Shown here: positions 2,525 through 37,582 of the stretch, in pieces
How the letters are laid out: every line of letters starts with the position of its first letter
How positions within the stretch are numbered: position 1 is the first letter of the stretch
Source: a virus
Taxonomy: Duplodnaviria > Caudoviricetes
Strand: one strand, 5' to 3'
IMG/VR virus record: IMGVR_UViG_3300044513_000301
Location: 1-37,582 of that record
Length of the DNA stretch: 37,582 bases
Translations under genes and position numbers: made by a program
The notes under the pieces: model-generated
Database searches by the model: none
The model's input: only the letters and a program-made list of their open reading frames with translations
What the model was told of the DNA's origin: nothing

Positions 2525-2544
2525 GATATCTCCTTGGATATGAA

Positions 2545-2589
2545 GATGCACAGCCAGGGGAAGGAGAGCAAAACCCCCAGCTGTGCATC
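2545..2589 (-). promoter_or_regulatory. RNA hairpin with anti-RBS loop in capsid 3' UTR
   Basis: mRNA-strand GAUGCACAGCUGGGGG-UUUUGCUCUCCUU-CCCCUGGCUGUGCAUC: 16-bp stem with two G-U pairs that form only on the minus strand. The loop is complementary to 4815-4827. Confidence 0.75.
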
Positions 2590-2601
2590 ATTAGTTAGAA
2601 C

Positions 2602-3486
2602 TTAGGACAGGCCAGTGATCATACCGTCTGCGCTGAAGTTCATGTGCTTGAGTGACATTTCACCCACGACAAAGTGCTTGTCGGCATCGCCATTCTTCGC
2701 AAGCAAGGTGCGTGTGAACGGACGAAGGGTGATTGAACGCCACATTGCTGGATCATACAGGAATGCATGAGTTGTCAGCTGGTGACGGTTAAGCACGACA
2801 TTGTATGTACCGAATGGTGATACATAGATATCGACTACGTTAGTCACTGTTCCGGAGTCACCGAAGTCACGGCGGCGTCCTGAAGCTGCAGCAAAGTCAG
2901 CAAGGATAGTTGCGTCTGATGGTTTGATCATCATGACTGTTGGTTCTGAACCGTTGTCATAGCAGTCTTCACCAAGCTCAAGTAACTTAGCTTCTGTCAG
3001 CGCGTCAGTTGCATTAGCACCTGCGTCAACAGAAGTTGAGATCATTTGAGTAGCTGAAGCCATCTCACGCGCAGTTGAACTGTCACCAGTTACAGCTGCA
3101 TTATCGACACCAATATAGGCACGTTCTAGGTCACGCTTGATCTCTTTCAAAACCTTAGAAAGTTGATAAGCGGTCTCTTTAGCCCTGCCGTAGGTACGAA
3201 TGGCATCACTTGTGGCACTTACACTAAAAGCCTTGCTCAGGATTTGGGTGTTATTAGTGCGTGAAGTGGTAGGCGTGAGGGTTACTAATGAGGCATCAGC
3301 ACCTTCAACCTGCGCGTTGTTGGCGGCGGCTGCAAGGCTATCTTCCATCCATTCAAACACGCGAGCATTTACCTTTTCATCCTTAATGGATGTATAAAAA
3401 GGCACATCAGTAGGTGTGATATCCGTAATTAGATCGGAAACGTCTTCAGCTTTGCCGACCTGATCATAAGTTGTAAAAGTTGCCAT
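2602..3486 (-). CDS. Major capsid protein (SU10/DUF5309-like)
   Basis: 294 aa directly after the scaffold; motifs G.AEDVSDLI.DITPTD.PF, FEW.ED.L, NNTQI, KEIKRDLE; GGAG RBS. Confidence 0.88.
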   Translation of the reverse strand: MATFTTYDQVGKAEDVSDLITDITPTDVPFYTSIKDEKVNARVFEWMEDSLAAAANNAQVEGADASLVTLTPTTSRTNNTQILSKAFSVSATSDAIRTYGRAKETAYQLSKVLKEIKRDLERAYIGVDNAAVTGDSSTAREMASATQMISTSVDAGANATDALTEAKLLELGEDCYDNGSEPTVMMIKPSDATILADFAAASGRRRDFGDSGTVTNVVDIYVSPFGTYNVVLNRHQLTTHAFLYDPAMWRSITLRPFTRTLLAKNGDADKHFVVGEMSLKHMNFSADGMITGLS

Positions 3487-3515
3487 TTGATTACTCCAAT
3501 CTGGCTATGGGTTGA

Positions 3516-4550
3516 TTACTCTTCCCAACGACTCATGATTGCATCAGCGATATCATCCAGATCCCTTGAGTTACGAAGTTTAGACTGGGCTTCTTTAGCC
3601 TTAGCCATACGCCTGTCAACTTTAGTTGCAGGAGCTTTCTTACTTCGAAGCACTCTCTGTTGTTGTTTTGCAGTTGTCTTCTTCTTGACGGCAACCTTCT
3701 TACCTTGGTCAAACATCCTGGCTTTGTTCAGTAACTTGATCACTACTGGATCTACATACTGATCGACCTGCTGCTGGGGTAAACCCTCAGATACGGCATA
3801 AGCCCTGATGTCGTTGTACAGGTTGTTAGACCAGTCTGGGATCTCCGTTTGAAGAACCTTGACTGCTTCTGATGCCTGTTGTTTTAAGGCTTGTTGTTGC
3901 TGTTGCTTGAGTTCATTATAGAAGTTATCAGCTTCTGATTGTAAAAACTTGATATTCTCTTCGGCTGCCTGAGCTTCCTTACGCAGCTGGGCAAACTCAG
4001 ATGCATCCATTGTTCTGGAAGCAACTAGCATATCCACGTCTGCATAGGGTTTATACTGCTCTTGAGCCTTCTCAAGTAACTTCTGCATAACCACATGGGT
4101 CTTTTCGATATTCGCGTCAGCAATCTTTCGTTGCTGGGCTACGTCTTGAGACTTTCGAGTTAAAGACGCCTCTTGACCGTAGAGCCGCTTCAAGTCAGAC
4201 ACAGATACTTGTAGATCTTCGCCGTCAACGGTGACATTAACAAGTGAGTCCTCAGAAAGTACTTCAGCTGTTTGTTCAGCTTCTTCTGTATCATCATCTT
4301 GTTCGTCTTCGTCTTCAGCATCTTCAAGGTCTTCGTCATCATCGACTTCGACTTCTTCGATAGCTTCGTCTTCATCATCAAACAGTTCACCTTGGTCTGT
4401 CTCATCGGCTTCGGTGGCTGTCGCCTCTTCCGTAGGTTCTGAGTGATCCTTTTCGGGACGCTCTTCCCATCCGGCTAGAATGGCATCTGCAGCATCATCC
4501 ACATCATTCAGGATGCGCTGCTCTTTTTGGGTTTCATTTAAGTCGCTCAT
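3516..4550 (-). CDS. Capsid scaffolding protein
   Basis: 344 aa with highly acidic N-terminus, VTVDGE..VSVSDL...Y......TRKSQ motif and coiled-coil character; lies between portal and capsid. Confidence 0.82.
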   Translation of the reverse strand: MSDLNETQKEQRILNDVDDAADAILAGWEERPEKDHSEPTEEATATEADETDQGELFDDEDEAIEEVEVDDDEDLEDAEDEDEQDDDTEEAEQTAEVLSEDSLVNVTVDGEDLQVSVSDLKRLYGQEASLTRKSQDVAQQRKIADANIEKTHVVMQKLLEKAQEQYKPYADVDMLVASRTMDASEFAQLRKEAQAAEENIKFLQSEADNFYNELKQQQQQALKQQASEAVKVLQTEIPDWSNNLYNDIRAYAVSEGLPQQQVDQYVDPVVIKLLNKARMFDQGKKVAVKKKTTAKQQQRVLRSKKAPATKVDRRMAKAKEAQSKLRNSRDLDDIADAIMSRWEE

Positions 4551-4557
4551 GGTAGAC

Positions 4558-4815
4558 TTATTCCCCTTCGCTGTTGTTGCGAGAAACGATGATTTCGTCC
4601 CTGACGTTTACTCGCTGTTGTAGAGTATGGACGATATCAACTAAGGCACGGTAGAAAGCATAAGCGGTTTCACGCTCTGCTGCCTGATCCGGCTTTGTTG
4701 CTGTGAATGAACTAAACGTGGACTCGACAAGACTGTTAATAGTCCTGTTAAATACATTGTTATTAAGTAAGACCTCAGCATCATCACCAGCTGCGATCAG
4801 TTCATCATCATTCAT
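4558..4815 (-). CDS. Hypothetical protein between portal and scaffold (85 aa)
   Basis: Strong RBS AAGGAGAGCAAAATG; stop lies 7 nt before the scaffold ATG. Confidence 0.85.
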   Translation of the reverse strand: MNDDELIAAGDDAEVLLNNNVFNRTINSLVESTFSSFTATKPDQAAERETAYAFYRALVDIVHTLQQRVNVRDEIIVSRNNSEGE

Positions 4816-4833
4816 TTTGCTCTCCTTTGGTTG

Positions 4834-4953
4834 TTAGGATTTACGCATCTTCTTTGATGCTTTCTTCTTTGCACTTTGTTTGGCTGCTGCTTTCTTAGCT
4901 GCTGCCATACCTGACTTTGTGTATGGGTATTTCTTTCCGGCTACATAAGGCAT
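4834..4953 (-). CDS. 39-aa Lys/Ala-rich basic protein
   Basis: Translated by hand: MPYVAGKKYPYTKSGMAAAKKAAAKQSAKKKASKKMRKS; fills the gap after the portal; AGGA upstream. Confidence 0.75.
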   Translation of the reverse strand: MPYVAGKKYPYTKSGMAAAKKAAAKQSAKKKASKKMRKS

Positions 4954-9232: not shown

Positions 9233-9242
9233 TATACTCTCC

Positions 9243-12200
9243 TTATGCTGATAATGCTGCGCTGCCTAACGACAGTGCTGCTTTCTCATCTTCGTCTTCC
9301 TTCATGGCTACTGCCATGTTTGCAATGATGCCAGCCAGGATGACACCCAGTGGCAAGTTAAAGAATTGAACAGTATTATTCTTGGCGAAAGCCTCACGGA
9401 TGAGCTTGGCTGTTAATGGCATGTTCTGCTTGGCTAGCTGAGGATTAGCTAGGTAGTAAGCAATGGCGTCTGCAGCCAGTTCTTCTGGGGACTGGAAGTA
9501 AGTAGCTTCTATATCCTTCAGCCTTTGTTTGTTTCTAGCCCGAAGTTCAGGACTCATGTCCTCGAATAGCCTGTAGCTATCTCTTACACGCATGTCAGTT
9601 CCAGGTATTAGACCTGTGCGCTGCAACCCAACGATCTCATCATAGATAGCTTTACTGACTTCACGCTTCTTTGCGCCAGCTTTAGAATTAACTGACTGCG
9701 TGCCTAGCACGCTTGTTATGATCTGTCTGAAGGTATCTTCATAGACATTGCCGCCTTTGACTGTAGTGCCTTTGACAGGGCTGTAGTAAGACTGAGATGA
9801 CAGAACGCCTTCTTGGTCTTGTCTGTTTTTACCGAAACGGAAGTTACCTTCTATGACATGCCCAAGTTCATGTAGTGCTGTCCATAACTCCTGGTTTTTA
9901 CCGCCGCCAGTCTGTTTAGGGTTCTTAGGATTTACATAGTCACCACTGAGAACCGCAACTGTGCCGCTGCCGCCTGGTTTTCTTAAAGGTGCTTCGAAGC
10001 CGCCTCTGGTAAATCCTTTACTACCTAGACTGCCCTTAAAGGCTTTCTTCAGCTGTGCGCTGTTCTTCGCAATGATGAACATATGGTGGAAGGCTTCGAC
10101 AATAGATTTAACAGTCCGGATGTCTTTAATGCCGTTCTCAAACGGTGACCCTGGCTTTCCTACTTCGAAGATAGCTTTGACTACGCCGTCAGCTTCACGC
10201 AGTTCAGCTGGATTAGCTGGTCTGCTTCCGGCTACGGAAGTATTAGGTTCGGATCGCTGAGTATCCCCTTGGGGTTGTCCGTTATCGGCTCTGTCGAAGG
10301 TTGGCTCTTGGCTGAGGACTGCTTGGCCTTCTGCTCCATCATAAACTTCTGAAGTTCCTTGACGAACAGATCCATCTTGTCGTCCGGCACTTGGTCTATT
10401 AGAGATCCCGTCTCGTTCTGTATCGGGGAGTGCTTCTTGGATTTGCTCATAGCTTTTACCTTCTTTTGCTGCAAGTAGTTTAGCAGCATCTAAGTAATCG
10501 TTATCACTGCCTCTTCCAGGGTCTACACCTAAAACTCTGAATAACTGTTTCTCAGGATACCACATAAGAGCCTGGAAGTCAGCTGTATTAATATCATATC
10601 CCTGAGTGCTTAGAAGCTGGATAGCTCTTTGTGTCGCTTCACGCATGTACGCACGTTCACCAGGTGTTTTAGGCATAGCCTGTAGTTGCGGCTCTAAGTT
10701 CTTTATGTGCGTTCCTACAGCTTTAAATAGATCAGGCTTTTCATGATTCTTCTTGTTAACTTCCTTGTATCTCTTAAAGAAACGCTGATATTCCTTATTA
10801 AGCTGCACAATGTAGTTATCGAACCTAGATGCGTCTTTATATAGTCCTGTTCTTGTTTCTCCAGATACTTCAAACGCATCCTTAATTAACTTTCGCATCT
10901 CTGGGTCTTTTATAGATTTCATGCCTTCTTCAATGCGTTTTCTATTCTTTTGCATTACAGCATCAGTCTTCATATCCTCAAATGGACGACCAACTGTTCT
11001 ATTCCACATACGCATCCACCAGATATCCATAGTTAGTGGATCATAGTTACCTCGTATATTCTGGAAGAAACCTTGCCCTATCTTTGCACCAAGGATGAAT
11101 GAACCTTTAACAGTAGAGGCTGCACTTTCGCTTGCTGGTACGGATAGTTTAGTACCATTAGCTTGATTAAACCTTTTAATGAAACTCTTTAATTCACTGA
11201 CAGTTGTATCCATGTCTAAGAACTCTGATATCGACATGTTCTCAGTGCTTTGGGTGTACTTGTTGAAGAAATCAAAAGCCTTCAACATTGAGGCGTTTCT
11301 TTCTCCACCCTTCTTAAATGTTGTTGTAGGCATTACACCATTATCCATGTAATACCTGAATACCTCAGTTGCGTATTCGAAGTTATCGACAACTGCTTGT
11401 CCATTGGATGTCACTGCAAGAGCATAATCAAAAGCAGCCTCATTAGCAGGTGACTCCATTATGCGTGGCTCTACAATAGACATGACTGACTTTGCGGCCT
11501 TCAACTTACGGTCATACCATCCAATAGCATTACCATCTTGTTGAAGATTGCGTACAGCTTCAGTAGCCATTATTCTAGCAATTCTATCAACATTCTCAGG
11601 TGTGTACTCGAAAGGCTCGTTTCTGCCTGTGGCTTTTCTCCACCTATCGTGTAGAAGGTTTACAGCTTCGACTAGGCTTCTTTTCTTAGCTCTTTCAAAA
11701 GTACCGTCTCTCATGGACTCTACTTCTGCAGCTGTTGGCATTACTTCTGTGCTGGTGATGTCTATGTCAGTGCCAATGCCAAAAGGATCACTGTTAGTGA
11801 GACCTGGTTCTTGGCTAAGGTTGATCTCACCTTCAGGCTCAATACGAACAGTGTCGTAGATAGGATGCTGTTTGCCTGATGACTTTAGAACAATAGTTCC
11901 AATCTGATTACCTGGGACAACTCTGCCAAAGCCTCTAGGACGCATAGTCGGCTCATCGCCTTTAGGCTTGCGATACATCTCAGTCGGCACATCAGCTTCT
12001 ACATTCATGGCATAGAAGTGCTGGCTGCCCTGCTCTACTGTTGTAATGAAAGACATAGGTAAGCCAGATGAGTTCTCAACCCAGTTCCACAGATTAGGAC
12101 GCACTAGATTACTATGCCACCGCTTACCTGTTTCCTTACTTGGTGTCTTAACTGGCTTAGGATCAACTTCAAGTCTGCCTCTTCCAGTCTCTGGATCTAT

Positions 12201-20886: not shown

Positions 20887-21207
20887 AAGTCGAAGGTTTA
20901 ACGGCTTTTTGAAATCGACATGACATAAGACCTATGGGGGTCAAATCTGTGGGCATGAGACTCTAATCAGCAGCAACCTATAGCTATGTTACTGTAAACT
21001 AACGATATCTTCTGTTGCTGACTGTCAATCAGCATGGCGTATGGTAGCCAATCATGTAAAGACATTAGGCATTTCTGAACATTGTCCGTAAGGGGCTGAT
21101 TATTGTTTATACAAATAGGAACTTATGTGCTCCGACAACCCTTAGATACACACTGCACATACAGCAACATCCAGTACATCAAGATCAACTTGACTACCGA
21201 CAGTTAT

Positions 21208-21230
21208 CTATAGGTGTACACCCCTCTATC
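21208..21230 (-). promoter_or_regulatory. Putative phage RNA polymerase promoter (late)
   Basis: AGAGGGGTGTACACCTATAG; one of three intergenic copies of AGAGGGGTGTACACC; resembles SP6 AGGTGACACTATAG. Confidence 0.7.
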
Positions 21231-24216: not shown

Positions 24217-24550
24217 TTTCTAGCTCCATCATGTATTCAAAGCCGTAGTCAGTTAGCACCCAAGTGTTACCCCAGGTGGTTTCTGACAGGCGTGTTGTTA
24301 TGAGTTCTTCTGTCGCTGCAATCGCAATGACAGTGGCAAAGTCTCGTGCAAACTTAGACTTTGTTGTAAAGCCACGGTCACCTGCGTTGAAAAGAACAAC
24401 GTAGATTGCAAGCAGCGGTTCGAAGTCAGGATTATCTTTAGTGAGTATCTGCCCAGGTCTTCCCGACCTTGTACTCACTTCGGATTGGGATTTTGAGGTT
24501 GAACGTCTTTTGCGTTTCTTGCGCCATTCGTCCAATGAGATCACCGACAT
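24194..24550 (-). CDS. Hypothetical protein overlapping the DNA polymerase 3' end
   Basis: Fills the polymerase-exonuclease gap; likely ATG at 24550 (MSVISLDEWRKKR) after AGGAAG; start uncertain. Confidence 0.6.
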   Translation of the reverse strand: MSVISLDEWRKKRKRRSTSKSQSEVSTRSGRPGQILTKDNPDFEPLLAIYVVLFNAGDRGFTTKSKFARDFATVIAIAATEELITTRLSETTWGNTWVLTDYGFEYMMELESVLEFTD

Positions 24551-27808: not shown

Positions 27809-28250
27809 AGATGCTCTCCTTGGCTTCTCGCAGCCACTCTTCTGGTATGTGTTTGTGTGCCCACATAAAGCCGTGCTTGATGCACCAGTCGCTGTAGGTA
27901 GTGGGTGAACCTTTGTAGATCTTTGCGTTGGCGTTACTGAATACGAACCGGATGTCCAGCCCCGGCATCTGCTGCTTGATAAGAAGATGCTTGTGCCTGT
28001 CAGCGGTAACGAAACGGCCTTTAGTCTCGACAAAGAAAAAGCCGCCTTTCTTAGGCAGCTTGAAATCGGGTGTGTACTTAGAATGACGAGCCGGAATGGT
28101 GTATTCTATGCGCTCTCTTTCATAGATTACATCAAGCCCGGCATCGTCAATCTGTTTGGATGCTCTGTCCTCAAGTCCAGAGCGATAGCCGTGCTTTATA
28201 GCTCTAGAAGTTCCAGTCTTGTTCTTGACCAGCCGCTTCGTTCGAGCCAC
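27783..28250 (-). CDS. Endonuclease I / Holliday junction resolvase (T7 gp3-like)
   Basis: YRSGLE, YTPDF, ETKG, DIRFVF, WCIKHGF. Confidence 0.93.
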   Translation of the reverse strand: MARTKRLVKNKTGTSRAIKHGYRSGLEDRASKQIDDAGLDVIYERERIEYTIPARHSKYTPDFKLPKKGGFFFVETKGRFVTADRHKHLLIKQQMPGLDIRFVFSNANAKIYKGSPTTYSDWCIKHGFMWAHKHIPEEWLREAKESIYVNTSDRS

Positions 28251-28924: not shown

Positions 28925-28954
28925 GATCTCCGTGAAGTTGCGAAGGAGATCATA

Positions 28955-28975
28955 TGCTTGGGTGTACACCCCTCT
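28955..28975 (-). promoter_or_regulatory. Putative phage RNA polymerase promoter (middle)
   Basis: AGAGGGGTGTACACCCAAGCA immediately after the RNAP stop, upstream of the replication genes. Confidence 0.7.
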
Positions 28976-31506: not shown

Positions 31507-31536
31507 ATGAAAACCCCCTGAACTCACACAGTTATA

Positions 31537-31557
31537 TGCTAGGGTGTACACCCCTCT
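31537..31557 (-). promoter_or_regulatory. Putative phage RNA polymerase promoter upstream of the RNAP gene
   Basis: AGAGGGGTGTACACCCTAGCA, third copy of the motif. Confidence 0.65.
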
Positions 31558-31716: not shown

Positions 31717-32547
31717 TCAATTTAACTTATCAAGATCATCAGCTATCTTAAATCTTGTAGATGATATACCGTGAACATACTTCTGGGTAGTCTTGTGATT
31801 ACGGTGTCCAAGCATATCCATGATAACTATAGTGTTAGTTTGGAGTTTGTTAGCCATCATCGTGGCGCAAGTGTGGCGACAAACGTGAAAGACAAAGTTC
31901 TTGTCGCCCCGGGCAATCCGATGACGTGCCTCAGCCCATACTTGGTAAAACGTATGTGCGTTAAAAGACTTGCAGTTGTGTAGACGTGTGGAAGCCTTCA
32001 GAGCTGTGTTAGACAGCGGTATATAGCGTTCAGAGCCGTTCTTAGTGCGCGGCAGATAGATACACGGCCTGTCGCTGTCCAAGTCGTTCCTGAAGCCTAC
32101 ACTGCCGTCCATGAGCTGCTTGATCTCACCGAGGCGCATACCAGTATTAAGTGACAACAGAACCATGTCTGCCATCCAAGGTGCGTCAGAGTACTTTAAG
32201 AACGTGACTAGTTGCTCACGTTCCTTGTCATTGAAGAACCTTACACGGTTCTCAGGCTGCTTGCGCCACACGAAGTCCGGCTTCTCACTAATCTTCTTAG
32301 TGCGCTTGGCATGTTTCATGACACTGCTAATGGTTGCACCATAGCGATCTATCGATGCAACGGACAACCCACGTTCTTGTAGTTTATCAAAGAAGTCGTG
32401 GATCTTGTCTGCGTCAATCTTATCAAGCTCTATGTTTCCAATGATTGACGTAAGTTTCTCAACTCTCCGTATGCTGTCGTGCTGATGCTTAGTGCCTTCA
32501 GCCCAGATGCGATTACGTTCTTTTCTAACGAAGTCTTCGATCCTCAT
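31717..32547 (-). CDS. int: Tyrosine integrase
   Basis: TGMRLGEI, TKNG, FHVCRHT, LGH, TQKY catalytic motifs; ATGA overlap gives start 32547; adjacent to attP. Confidence 0.94.
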   Translation of the reverse strand: MRIEDFVRKERNRIWAEGTKHQHDSIRRVEKLTSIIGNIELDKIDADKIHDFFDKLQERGLSVASIDRYGATISSVMKHAKRTKKISEKPDFVWRKQPENRVRFFNDKEREQLVTFLKYSDAPWMADMVLLSLNTGMRLGEIKQLMDGSVGFRNDLDSDRPCIYLPRTKNGSERYIPLSNTALKASTRLHNCKSFNAHTFYQVWAEARHRIARGDKNFVFHVCRHTCATMMANKLQTNTIVIMDMLGHRNHKTTQKYVHGISSTRFKIADDLDKLN

Positions 32548-32762
32548 GACGCTTCTCCTGTGATTGCTGATTTTCCAATCAGTGACAGGCATTGGATCTC
32601 GATGGCATTGGCTTCGAGGTCTGCATCATTCATAATCGTAACGTCTTTAAGTGGAAGGTGACCGTAGTGATCCAGATGTGCCTGGATGTATAAATGCTCA
32701 ATGTTTATACGGTCTTCGAGACCCCAGCTAAGGGGCTGTCTAATGGTCTTTTGGTGTGACAT
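32544..32762 (-). CDS. Hypothetical protein between attP and integrase (72 aa)
   Basis: AAAGGAG RBS; stop coupled to the integrase ATG. Confidence 0.7.
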   Translation of the reverse strand: MSHQKTIRQPLSWGLEDRINIEHLYIQAHLDHYGHLPLKDVTIMNDADLEANAIEIQCLSLIGKSAITGEAS

Positions 32763-35714: not shown

Positions 35715-37582
35715 TTAATTAGCTTCCAATGCCGCAAGGCGTGTTTCTAAGTCATCAATCTTAGTCAATGCTTCCTGCAATGCGGCGGTCAATAGAGGCA
35801 CTAGCTTGCTCTGGTCAATGCCCTGATATACAGGATTGCCATCGTCATCTACCTCATTGTGTGTGCCTGTAATCGCTTCTGGCACAACATCCTGTACCTC
35901 GTGGGCAAGGAAGCCATCAACGGTAGTGTCAGGGTCAGCAATAAAGTTAAAGCGCACAGGGTTGAGTGCCTTAACACGGTCAGCCGCACCAGTTACGTCA
36001 GTGACGTTTTCTTTGAGGCGGTAGTCAGATGATGTGTTGTAGGATGTGGCTGATGTTGATGTTGTTATACTGCCGACAACGCCATTGGTAAAATTCCCAA
36101 AACGCCAATGATAACCTGTACCACTACCAGAAAAAATGCTAAAGCTACCACTGTTATCTGGGTGCGCTATTGATACGCCTATGCCAGAATATGATGTGCC
36201 ACCCACCAGCAGATTGCCACTGCTGTCGATGCGCATCTTTTCTGTGCCGCCAATACTAAACCTGTGCTGCGCAGCCTCATTTACTGCGTCAACATAAGCT
36301 GCGCCAGAACGATTATAATGTTGCACAAGGTTTGCTGTTCCAGAATATGCTGGGCCAAATTCAATACCGCTAGCACCACCCGCTGAAACAACTAGGTTGT
36401 AAACAGGATTTGTAATACCAATGCCCACGTTGCCACTGCTGGTGATGCGCATTGCTTCTGACCAAGTAATAGCCGTATCCGCAGTGCCTGAACTCGCAAC
36501 ACGAAAACTATGTGTTCCGTCTAATTGAGCATATAAAGATGCCTCGTTAGTACTCATATACTTCCAAGAAGTAAGTTGATTTGAACCATCTGCATAAGCA
36601 TTATCTGAAAGAAAAGTTCTTGAGGTTGCCCCCGAAGCACCAACTAAAGACGAACCGCTACCTACTTGAGTAGCAACCCAAGCAGAGTTCCAATCTTCAG
36701 GCGTAGTCCCAATGCCCACGTTTTGCGAACTGTCGATGCGTATTGCTTCTGTGGAGTCAGTAGAAAACGAAATAGTTCCGTTGTTACTAATCGCATCAAA
36801 ATCTACTCCAGCATCAGGGTCCGTGTTTTCAAAAGTAGATATAACCAAACCACGACCAGTGTATACGCCACTAAACGCAGCAATATCACTGTTTGATGTA
36901 CCACTAAGGACATCTAATCTCTTATCAGGCGAACTCGTTCCCAGCCCTAATCGCTGTGTGGAGGCATCCCAGAAGAAACCTTGCGTCACGCCTGTGCTGT
37001 CGTAGAAGCTGATGTCGCCGTCATTCTTAACAGTAAACCGCTTAGTCCAAGTATCATCTGATGCGTCTGCGTCTTGTTGACCAGAAGAAATCTCAAAGGC
37101 TTGATTAAGACTTTCTTGCGCCGCAATTTGCCAATTTGTGTGACTTGCGTTTGTTGTTTCAAAAGTTAATTCAGGTGAATCATTGCTAATAACAGGATTG
37201 TCTTGAAACTCTGTTGCACCTGAAACCGTCAGCCCATCAGCCGTCACCGTGCCGTTAATATCAACATTACCATCACAGCCAATTACCATCTGGTCAACTT
37301 GTGTGCCACCAACATTAGACTGAAACTTTGCAATGTCCCGTGCTGATGTAGATGTTGGATGATACGCTTGGAGTGCAAGGTTTCCATCACCAGCCGCACA
37401 AGTGCTTTCAATCCCATCAGACACAACACTGCCCTGCACGTTAATGCCGCTAGTGGTGGTGGTTAGTTTGGTTGCATCCTGATACTTTAATTCAATGTCA
37501 CCATTCGTTGTGTCTGCTTGAAGAACACGGTTTGTTCCATCTGCCTTTTCGATACTGACAAACTGCGAACCCATAATCCAAA
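35715..37582 (-). CDS. Tail fibre protein, C-terminal part with peptidase S74-type intramolecular chaperone
   Basis: Repeated (M/I)RI(D/T)SS(G/Q)N(V/L) modules; TSSDYRLKENV...GFLAHEVQDVVPEAI and terminal coiled coil; frame continues from 1-1369. Confidence 0.92.
   Translation of the reverse strand, partial: WIMGSQFVSIEKADGTNRVLQADTTNGDIELKYQDATKLTTTTSGINVQGSVVSDGIESTCAAGDGNLALQAYHPTSTSARDIAKFQSNVGGTQVDQMVIGCDGNVDINGTVTADGLTVSGATEFQDNPVISNDSPELTFETTNASHTNWQIAAQESLNQAFEISSGQQDADASDDTWTKRFTVKNDGDISFYDSTGVTQGFFWDASTQRLGLGTSSPDKRLDVLSGTSNSDIAAFSGVYTGRGLVISTFENTDPDAGVDFDAISNNGTISFSTDSTEAIRIDSSQNVGIGTTPEDWNSAWVATQVGSGSSLVGASGATSRTFLSDNAYADGSNQLTSWKYMSTNEASLYAQLDGTHSFRVASSGTADTAITWSEAMRITSSGNVGIGITNPVYNLVVSAGGASGIEFGPAYSGTANLVQHYNRSGAAYVDAVNEAAQHRFSIGGTEKMRIDSSGNLLVGGTSYSGIGVSIAHPDNSGSFSIFSGSGTGYHWRFGNFTNGVVGSITTSTSATSYNTSSDYRLKENVTDVTGAADRVKALNPVRFNFIADPDTTVDGFLAHEVQDVVPEAITGTHNEVDDDGNPVYQGIDQSKLVPLLTAALQEALTKIDDLETRLAALEAN
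37493..37582. repeat. 90-bp terminal direct repeat, copy 2
   Basis: Identical to 1-90. Confidence 0.97.

Follow-up and report, generated by a model that had tools for sequence, protein, structure and literature searches.

What is the function of a hairpin that lies directly behind the capsid gene of a phage and displays a loop complementary to the ribosome-binding site (RBS) of a gene further upstream in the same late operon? The question arises in IMG/VR virus record IMGVR_UViG_3300044513_000301 (Duplodnaviria; Caudoviricetes), a complete virus record of 37,582 bp that was analyzed in full (hereafter, the window) and carries every gene on the minus strand. An initial annotation, made from the sequence alone, had proposed that the loop pairs, in cis or as an antisense RNA, with the RBS of a gene encoding an 85-aa protein just ahead of the scaffold gene. 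We are highly confident that a large clade of uncultured T7-like marine phages truly possesses this hairpin as a conserved and strand-specific structure at the RNA level. Sequence comparison further suggests, if only tentatively, that it may combine the role of a terminator or 3' protector of the scaffold-capsid message with that of an element antisense to the Shine-Dalgarno (SD) sequence (anti-SD), with the RBS of the 85-aa gene as its principal partner.

A conserved RNA hairpin downstream of the capsid gene

On the minus strand, the hairpin is formed by a 5' arm (2589-2574), the loop UUUUGCUCUCCUU (2573-2561), and a 3' arm (2560-2545). Both the reading of the sequence and the predicted fold confirm the annotated 16-bp stem, which begins 12 nt past the capsid stop, and a consensus scan lists no promoter-like site on the minus strand at the hairpin. 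In RNAfold predictions of a 106-nt segment, the hairpin is the minimum-free-energy structure as well as the centroid structure, with the loop unpaired (-35.1 kcal/mol, z -3.05), and 2 of 200 shuffled sequences were as stable. The two G-U pairs of the stem are adjacent and would be replaced by A-C on the opposite strand, so that they are effective on the mRNA strand only, as had been claimed. Covariance model R1 identifies the hairpin as its sole strong match in the window (47.7 bits, E 5.7e-12). Rfam 15 has no match in the window at the gathering score, and a search of positions 2400-2750 with E-values up to 10 returned only seven far-sub-threshold matches to eukaryotic microRNAs, small nucleolar RNAs, and long non-coding RNAs.

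The tail that follows the stem, UUCAUAUCC, has no clear U-tract; the stretch UUCAUAUC after the stem has 4 U in 8 nt. Many relatives have a U-tract and a stem resembling that of a common terminator: past the outer stem, at least 5 of 8 nt are U in 21 of 49 distinct sequences and at least 4 in 31 of 49, with the caveat that some outer stems are over-extended by the fold. The hairpin of the window is absent from the results of a terminator consensus scan because that scan accepts only loops of 3-8 nt.

Relatives were obtained by a capsid search of IMG/VR, of which the best 80 of 329 loci (capsids 61-97% identical) were compared. The order of the 85-aa, scaffold, and capsid genes is kept, with a homologue of the 85-aa gene in 72 of the 80 loci; the other eight are cut off upstream. 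A motif-bearing hairpin is located no more than 160 nt past the capsid stop in 76 of 81 sequences (the window and the 80 loci); the remaining five loci end before or inside the hairpin, and all 76 that reach far enough have it. The 9-mer GCTCTCCTT is found at this place in 72 of the 80 loci, and none of the 72 loci with the loop core GCUCUCCUU shows a change in it; the loops range in length from 13 to 18 nt. Three loci of a single clade (L069-71) have the variant loop C(U/C)GUCUCCU. The stems are diverse (CUGGGG/CCCUGG, CCUAGGU/ACCUAGG, GCACAU/GUGUGC, AGUCAG/CUGACU, CGGCGG/CCGCCG, CAGUGG/CCACUG, and others), and many relatives form a second, lower helix as well.

Covariation counts show that the stem is kept by compensatory changes. 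The covariance model was built from 41 distinct sequences, and in the alignment fitted to it, 72.8% of the cells are paired (49.5 ± 1.9 in shuffles) and 110 cells show both-sided changes (48 ± 5.6 in shuffles); none of 500 shuffles reached 110, and sliding the partner by 1-3 columns left 43-59, although a model-fitted alignment leans to the model's own structure. RNAalifold on a plain MAFFT alignment detected compensatory changes at all five predicted pairs. The model yields one strong match per record in 16 of 16 records (the window and 15 others), always on the coding strand.

Of the 41 distinct hairpins, 34 fold more stably as the mRNA strand than as the complement (mean -29.9 versus -24.5 kcal/mol). 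Within helices, there are 27 G-U pairs versus 10 A-C, a count limited to pairs within Watson-Crick helices (letting stems run through A-C gave 50 versus 55). The strand bias of the folding energy and the excess of G-U pairs indicate an RNA element rather than a DNA element. When IMG/VR was scanned for the exact 14-mer TTTTGCTCTCCTTA, at least 120 stretches were returned, out of an estimated ~810 in all, most of them expected by chance. The model matches 38 of the first 100 loci, of which 34 are located directly after a homologous capsid gene (52-73% identity), which indicates that the family is large.

Complementarity between the loop and the RBS of the 85-aa gene

The perfect complement of the loop, AAGGAGAGCAAAA, leads straight into the ATG of the 85-aa gene, as the initial annotation had stated. 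The exact 13-mer is present at only two places in the window, the loop and this RBS, against an expectation of 0.01, and none of 100 shuffled sequences contained two matches. When the loop alone was compared with all 30-nt windows of the coding strand using RNAduplex, the RBS of the 85-aa gene was the best partner (-19.3 kcal/mol; mean -5.5, standard deviation 2.4). The second-best partner was the RBS of the primase/helicase gene, AAGGAGAGCA (-16.8 kcal/mol); the RBS of a 109-aa gene, AAGGAGAG, an 8-nt partner, was among the next-best duplexes. RNAcofold, which cannot represent the pairing of a loop with a strand, returned only end-to-end pairing of the hairpin with the translation-initiation region (TIR) of the 85-aa gene.

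Words resembling SD and anti-SD sequences are common, so that short matches arise easily, and the element is an inverted repeat, which would also suit a DNA function such as a cruciform, an origin, or a packaging site. Nevertheless, chance or a DNA element is a very improbable explanation: the low expectation for an exact 13-mer is joined by family-wide conservation with covariation of the stem, by the strand bias in folding energy and G-U pairs, and by the presence of just one copy in each genome, invariably located where the capsid gene ends. The claim that the match is unlikely to be fortuitous is therefore upheld.

Across the family, the loop of each phage (15 nt) was compared with the TIRs of the same phage. 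In 23 of 41 distinct loop/TIR combinations, the TIR of the 85-aa gene is complementary to the loop over an unbroken run of 9-13 nt. A second capsid search contributed 13 more combinations, three with at least 9 nt, four with 8 nt, and six with at most 5 nt, which brings the total of matches of at least 9 nt to 26 of 54. Elsewhere, the match reaches a maximum of 6 nt for the scaffold gene (23 combinations), 7 nt for the capsid gene (39), and 8 nt for the gene downstream of the hairpin (38). The word GAGAGC occurs in 26 of 54 distinct TIRs of the 85-aa gene but in none of those of the scaffold (0/22), capsid (0/37), and downstream genes (0/38). It is kept in 14 of 31 sequence clusters of the 85-aa TIR, although flanks and spacing to the ATG differ, and one clade retains it together with an SD weakened to AAAGAGAGC.

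In a comparison of 34 window genes across 14 genomes, the row of the 85-aa gene reads 13, 12, 9, 4, 7, 8, 6, 8, 8, 7, 11, 13, 6, and 7 nt, and its TIR is the best or joint-best of 15-34 gene families in 10 of the 14 genomes; the choice of start codons in this table was crude and missed matches of the primase/helicase gene in G003 (11 nt) and of the exonuclease gene in G002 (9 nt). In the L069 clade, the altered loop GUCUCCU (complement, AGGAGACAG) stands opposite the RBS AGGAGACA, which reads AGGAGAC; the joint change of loop and RBS is one compensatory event. In L070, loop and RBS match over 7 nt.

Evidence weighing against a simple pairing with the 85-aa RBS

Several observations weigh against a dedicated pairing with the RBS of the 85-aa gene. 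The loop is unchanged where this RBS matches only 4-6 nt (L032-38, L051-54, L282, L286, L280, L309-311); the non-matching sites read ACAGGAUAAC in L032-38, have poor SDs in L051-54, and read UAAGGUUAC or ACAGGAUAG in six combinations. Because the loop is fixed in these lineages, pairing with the 85-aa gene cannot be its only constraint. Where the loop has a C on the 5' side of GCUCUCC and the RBS contains GAGAGC, the facing base is T (two cases) or A (five cases) but never G (0/7). A U at the same position faces A in 16 of 18 cases, but A is the usual base of the spacer, and an A-rich match past the core can arise from a U-rich loop opposite an A-rich spacer. Since there is no co-change beside the core, the match to the AAAA spacer does not represent a conserved pairing, and the annotated match to a gene-specific spacer is not supported as such; the conserved unit is the 9-nt AAGGAGAGC/GCUCUCCUU. 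By the refuting criterion set in the initial annotation, loops that fail to track the RBS in relatives, the proposed pairing is refuted in part: the matches of at least 9 nt in 26 of 54 combinations and the co-change in L069-71 accord with tracking, but the fixed loop of the non-matching lineages does not, and neither do the flank and spacer, which do not covary. Moreover, a closed loop of 13 nt cannot form 13 stacked pairs without strain. The enrichment of AGC after GGAG is modest, with 21 of 325 RBS-like GGAG sites versus 25 of 1206 elsewhere (about three-fold), and several other triplets starting with A are enriched after GGAG by a similar factor.

Another point of this kind comes from RNA libraries (X1 and X17-19), which consist of assembled contigs only, show neither RNA ends nor levels, and have contig depths that cannot rank genes. 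Metatranscriptome contigs of X1 (100% identical) span positions 2608-3815 and 3809-4557, with word depths of 12.7 and 14.2, respectively (2-4.2 for other pieces of the window). The hairpin and the 85-aa gene are outside the contig coverage of X1 and X17-19, which proves nothing. One X1 contig ends in an Illumina adapter at position 4557, directly past the stop of the 85-aa gene and 7 nt before the scaffold ATG (the interval that had been annotated), and this position may be a discrete 5' end of an RNA. It hints, if weakly, that the RBS of the 85-aa gene may be missing from the scaffold-capsid RNA, in which case the loop could act only in trans. A consensus scan of the minus strand detected no strong terminator-like site between 4815 and 2602.

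The constancy of the loop where the 85-aa RBS does not match could also mean that the pyrimidine-rich loop is kept as the binding site of a host or phage protein (for instance S1, Hfq, ProQ, an RNase, or, during termination, the phage's own RNA polymerase), that the hairpin is a terminator or 3' stabilizer, and that the matches to RBSs are side effects of an SD-like sequence. The location of the hairpin equals that of the plain post-capsid terminators of distant relatives (see "Comparison with known systems"), a content of 5 or more U in the 8 nt past the outer stem is seen in 21 of the 49 distinct sequences, and the phage encodes a single-subunit RNA polymerase. However, a protein ligand would leave unexplained why GAGAGC is kept in 14 of 31 clusters of the 85-aa RBS and in no RBS of the other head genes, and why loop and RBS changed jointly in the L069 clade; no protein partner can be named from the present data. 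We consider this explanation unlikely.

Other possible partners of the loop

In several genomes, the loop also matches other RBSs. The match to the primase/helicase RBS extends over 10 nt in G000, 8 nt in G001, 11 nt in G003, and 8 nt in G007, with part of it overlapping the C-terminal codons of the endonuclease gene (..EAKES..). For the RBS of the 109-aa gene, the match spans 12 nt in G001; in G006 it spans 10 nt, and there the RBS sequence AAGGAGAGCG fits the loop of the same phage, CCGCUC. Matches of 9 nt were found for the RBSs of the DNA polymerase gene in G003 and the exonuclease gene in G002.

At the junction of the endonuclease and primase/helicase genes, the word AAGGAGAG(C) is located 3-5 nt on the 5' side of a GC-rich intrinsic terminator in G002 (position 24329), G006 (7726), and G010 (4596); its counterpart in the window is found at 27812-27821. 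The word lies outside coding sequence in G002 and G006, and a second SD follows there. This layout resembles that of a small RNA (sRNA) derived from a 3' untranslated region (UTR), with a seed followed by a terminator, which would be complementary to the loop of the capsid hairpin.

The last 6-7 bases of the loop, CUCCUU(A), are identical to the anti-SD tail of 16S rRNA, which is given as GAUCACCUCCUUA in PMC6107228. Because CUCCUU(A) is the end of this tail, the loop is an anti-SD word extended by GCU on its 5' side. The hairpin might thus be a general decoy that mimics the 16S tail, with the abundant 3' end of the capsid message competing with ribosomes for many SDs of phage or host and causing a late shift in translation in which the 85-aa gene is not special. 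Matches of 9-12 nt to the RBSs of the primase/helicase, 109-aa, DNA polymerase, exonuclease, and other genes in some genomes are in line with such a decoy, as are the fit of the 109-aa RBS to the CCGCUC loop of G006 and the AAGGAGAG(C) words adjoining a terminator in G002, G006, and G010. However, the fixed GCU on the 5' side of the anti-SD part is not needed for generic SDs, the row of the 85-aa gene stands out in the gene-by-genome table, the enrichment of GGAGAGC at RBSs overall is modest, and some of the matches in coding sequence are possibly fixed by the protein (..EAKES..). A general decoy therefore appears rather unlikely.

A local partner is the AAGGAGA RBS located 9 nt past the stem, whose complementarity to seven loop bases (UCUCCUU) agrees with the initial annotation. 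In read-through transcripts, the two could form a pseudoknot that gates the next gene (99 aa), and a match of 7-8 nt between the loop and the downstream TIR is present in 16 of the 38 distinct combinations. This arrangement is improbable: the match never extends beyond a generic SD (maximum 8 nt, no AGC), L042, L059, L061, and L003 keep the loop without an SD at this place, the distance varies from ~8 to more than 40 nt, and, with a 16-bp stem to be spanned up to its loop, a linker of 9 nt is short.

Proposed mechanism and implications

If the hairpin combines the roles of terminator or 3' protector and anti-SD element, its stem would terminate the abundant late scaffold-capsid message and/or protect its 3' end, as does T-phi, the terminator after gene 10 of phage T7. 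The exposed loop would bind the RBS of the 85-aa gene, whether within a transcript that runs from portal to capsid (in cis) or as a stable fragment of the 3' end (in trans). It would block the access of the 30S subunit and lower translation, as in the case of the icaR 3' UTR of Staphylococcus aureus and in the manner of sRNAs whose seed lies in a loop. Scaffold synthesis would perhaps be lowered too, via the 7-nt gap between the 85-aa and scaffold genes; an effect on the scaffold:capsid ratio would be pure inference. In some genomes, further targets of the loop might be the RBSs of the primase/helicase, 109-aa, DNA polymerase, and exonuclease genes. What endures of the antisense pairing in the initial annotation is a conserved RNA element with a complementarity that extends beyond a generic SD, whereas pairing with the spacer does not, and the 85-aa RBS shares its match with others.

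The element looks like a terminator-type hairpin that gained a large, sequence-constrained loop. It is possible, but rather doubtful, that a clade of marine T7-like phages turned the terminator of the capsid message, their most abundant late one, into a riboregulator that joins a mimic of the 16S tail to GCU and prefers a private class of RBSs (AAGGAGAGC), such that an increase in capsid mRNA would itself shut down the translation of a small head gene and some replication genes. If this were true, SD-like words beside early terminators may act as counter-partners, and the system would constitute an undescribed layer of translational timing in phages. Should the loop mask RBSs, the translation of other genes would be subject to feedback from the level of capsid mRNA, and the loop would offer a compact, portable anti-SD module for synthetic biology. 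The hairpin is a new RNA motif ready for Rfam-style curation and represents a simple RNA device conserved in many uncultured marine podophages; post-transcriptional control of the dosage of late phage genes (portal, scaffold, capsid) is known in few models only. A literature search, which did not cover subscription journals, found no account of an anti-SD loop in the terminator of a phage capsid gene.

Genome context and gene layout

The phage of the window is a T7-like podophage, based on its gene content. Genes are present for a single-subunit RNA polymerase of 850 aa, integrase, a gp2.5-like single-stranded DNA-binding protein (SSB), endonuclease, primase/helicase, DNA polymerase, exonuclease, and ribonucleotide reductase; they are followed by a head module with the order TerL, portal, a basic open reading frame (ORF) of 39 aa, the 85-aa ORF, scaffold, and capsid (Table 1). 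Sequencing runs containing the phage stem from seawater, marine, estuary, and aquaculture metagenomes. Cultured phages are distant, with a top capsid identity of 38.7%. A blastn search of INPHARED detected no DNA relatives among cultured phages; 3-4% of the query was covered in nine records by one short stretch of the scaffold gene, which is likely low-complexity sequence, judging by its acidic repeats. In a protein comparison, all 309 records were below 60% identity.

Table 1. Location of the hairpin, its predicted targets, and adjacent genes in the window
Feature	Position	Strand	Evidence or remarks
Hairpin at 3' end of capsid gene, 16-bp stem, two G-U pairs	2545..2589	- (mRNA strand)	Folding, covariance model
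Hairpin loop, 13 nt, UUUUGCUCUCCUU	2561..2573	-	Core GCUCUCCUU fixed in relatives
AAGGAGAGCAAAA, RBS, spacer, and A of ATG of 85-aa gene	4815..4827	-	Exact loop complement; main predicted target
Major capsid protein gene	2602..3486	-	phrog_1328, 3.3e-83; stop TAA 2604-2602, 12 nt before hairpin
Scaffolding protein gene	3516..4550	-	phrog_3927, phrog_9013; ATG 4550, 7 nt past 85-aa stop
85-aa gene, function unassigned	4558..4815	-	Syntenic, between portal and scaffold genes
Next gene (99 aa) downstream of hairpin	ATG 2524-2522	-	RBS AAGGAGA 2529..2535, 9 nt past stem
Primase/helicase gene	ATG 27808	-	phrog_239; RBS AAGGAGAGCA at 27812..27821
109-aa gene	9232-8903	-	RBS AAGGAGAG at 9237..9244

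The 85-aa protein has no match in PHROG or Pfam. In the Atlas, it falls into viral clusters called hypothetical protein; one automatic EF-P/YeiP name was given no weight. The structural neighbours in the Atlas are histidine kinase helical hairpins (TM 0.5-0.66), which were taken to reflect a likeness of fold only. G001, the closest relative, is the only genome in which a homologue of the 39-aa lysine-rich ORF between the portal and 85-aa genes (4834-4953, minus strand) was found; elsewhere in the family, clades have the 85-aa gene immediately behind the portal gene, often without a strong SD.

The capsid gene of L047 is split after about codon 19 by a group I intron (4047-4265; Rfam RF00028, 74.2 bits, gathering score 50), across which the reading frame is closed. 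Insertions of the same size are present in the capsid genes of L041, L046, L048-50, L058, L072, L074, and L079.

A tyrosine integrase gene (31717-32592, minus strand; phrog_1, 4.5e-39) adjoins the RNA polymerase gene, and its presence suggests a temperate lifestyle of the phage. A 90-bp terminal repeat (1-90 and 37493-37582) lies within a tail-fibre ORF that spans the ends of the record; rather than the physical ends, the repeat probably reflects overlap in the assembly of a genome that is circular or permuted. No repeated phage-promoter word was found near the head genes. A 24-nt word with the palindromic core GGGTGTACACCC occurs in three copies (21204-21227, 28952-28975, and 31534-31557, plus-strand coordinates), of which one precedes the RNA polymerase gene, one precedes the SSB gene, and one is in the gap ahead of the tail genes; the repeat is a candidate phage promoter, operator, or small hairpin.

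Comparison with known systems

The hairpin shares with T-phi and with the terminators of four distant relatives (capsids 34-39% identical) its location directly past the capsid gene in a portal-small gene-scaffold-capsid module, its GC-rich stem, and, in many members of the family, a U-tract. The four relatives, which comprise the cultured Pelagibacter phage HTVC106P, Methylophilales phage Venkman, and Octadecabacter DB virus 2 as well as genome ctnlZ23 from a Manatee Spring metagenome, have a plain tetraloop terminator at the same place, with a best score of 12 bits in the covariance model. Unlike their 4-nt loops, those of the present family have 13-18 nt with a fixed 9-nt core, and the window lacks a clear U-tract. 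The element thus has the GC-rich stem behind a gene that is typical of intrinsic and T-phi-type terminators but not their short, unconstrained loop.

Among phages, the control of an upstream gene by a structure at the 3' end of an mRNA has precedents. In the T7 gene 1.1/1.2 mRNA, a pairing between the 3' end and an RBS is relieved by RNase III, and sib of phage lambda is a case of retroregulation. The same kind of control is predicted here, but those systems employ RNase III sites and long duplexes and have no anti-SD word displayed in a loop.

Such words are known from sRNAs whose C- or CU-rich loops mask SDs. RNAIII and RsaE (PMC3868564) and the Cuckoo RNAs CcsR/NfeR1 (PMC4615179) are reported to be of this kind. 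The capsid hairpin resembles RNAIII, RsaE/RoxS, and CcsR/NfeR1 in that an anti-SD word is exposed in a hairpin loop and the seed is conserved while the stems vary. These sRNAs are genes with promoters of their own, often with several loops, whereas the hairpin has one loop, begins 12 nt past a stop codon, and has neither a promoter-like site in the consensus scan nor a match to an Rfam model. With hbs of Bacillus subtilis, where an interaction between the 5' and 3' UTRs stabilizes the mRNA (PMC5737220), it has in common a long-range pairing; that interaction is unrelated in sequence and is reported to act by stabilization and not by masking an SD.

The 3' UTR of icaR in S. aureus contains the motif UCCCCUG, which is complementary to the SD, blocks initiation, and creates a substrate for RNase III; action in cis and in trans were both considered (PMC3868564). 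There, the motif is not situated in a terminator loop, the mRNA is monocistronic, and neither sequence nor organism is related to the present case, in which the predicted partner is located 2.25 kb upstream, within the late operon of a phage. What the two have in common is a pyrimidine motif in a 3' UTR that is complementary to the SD of an upstream gene, over 13 nt in the window and over at least 9 nt in 26 of 54 combinations.

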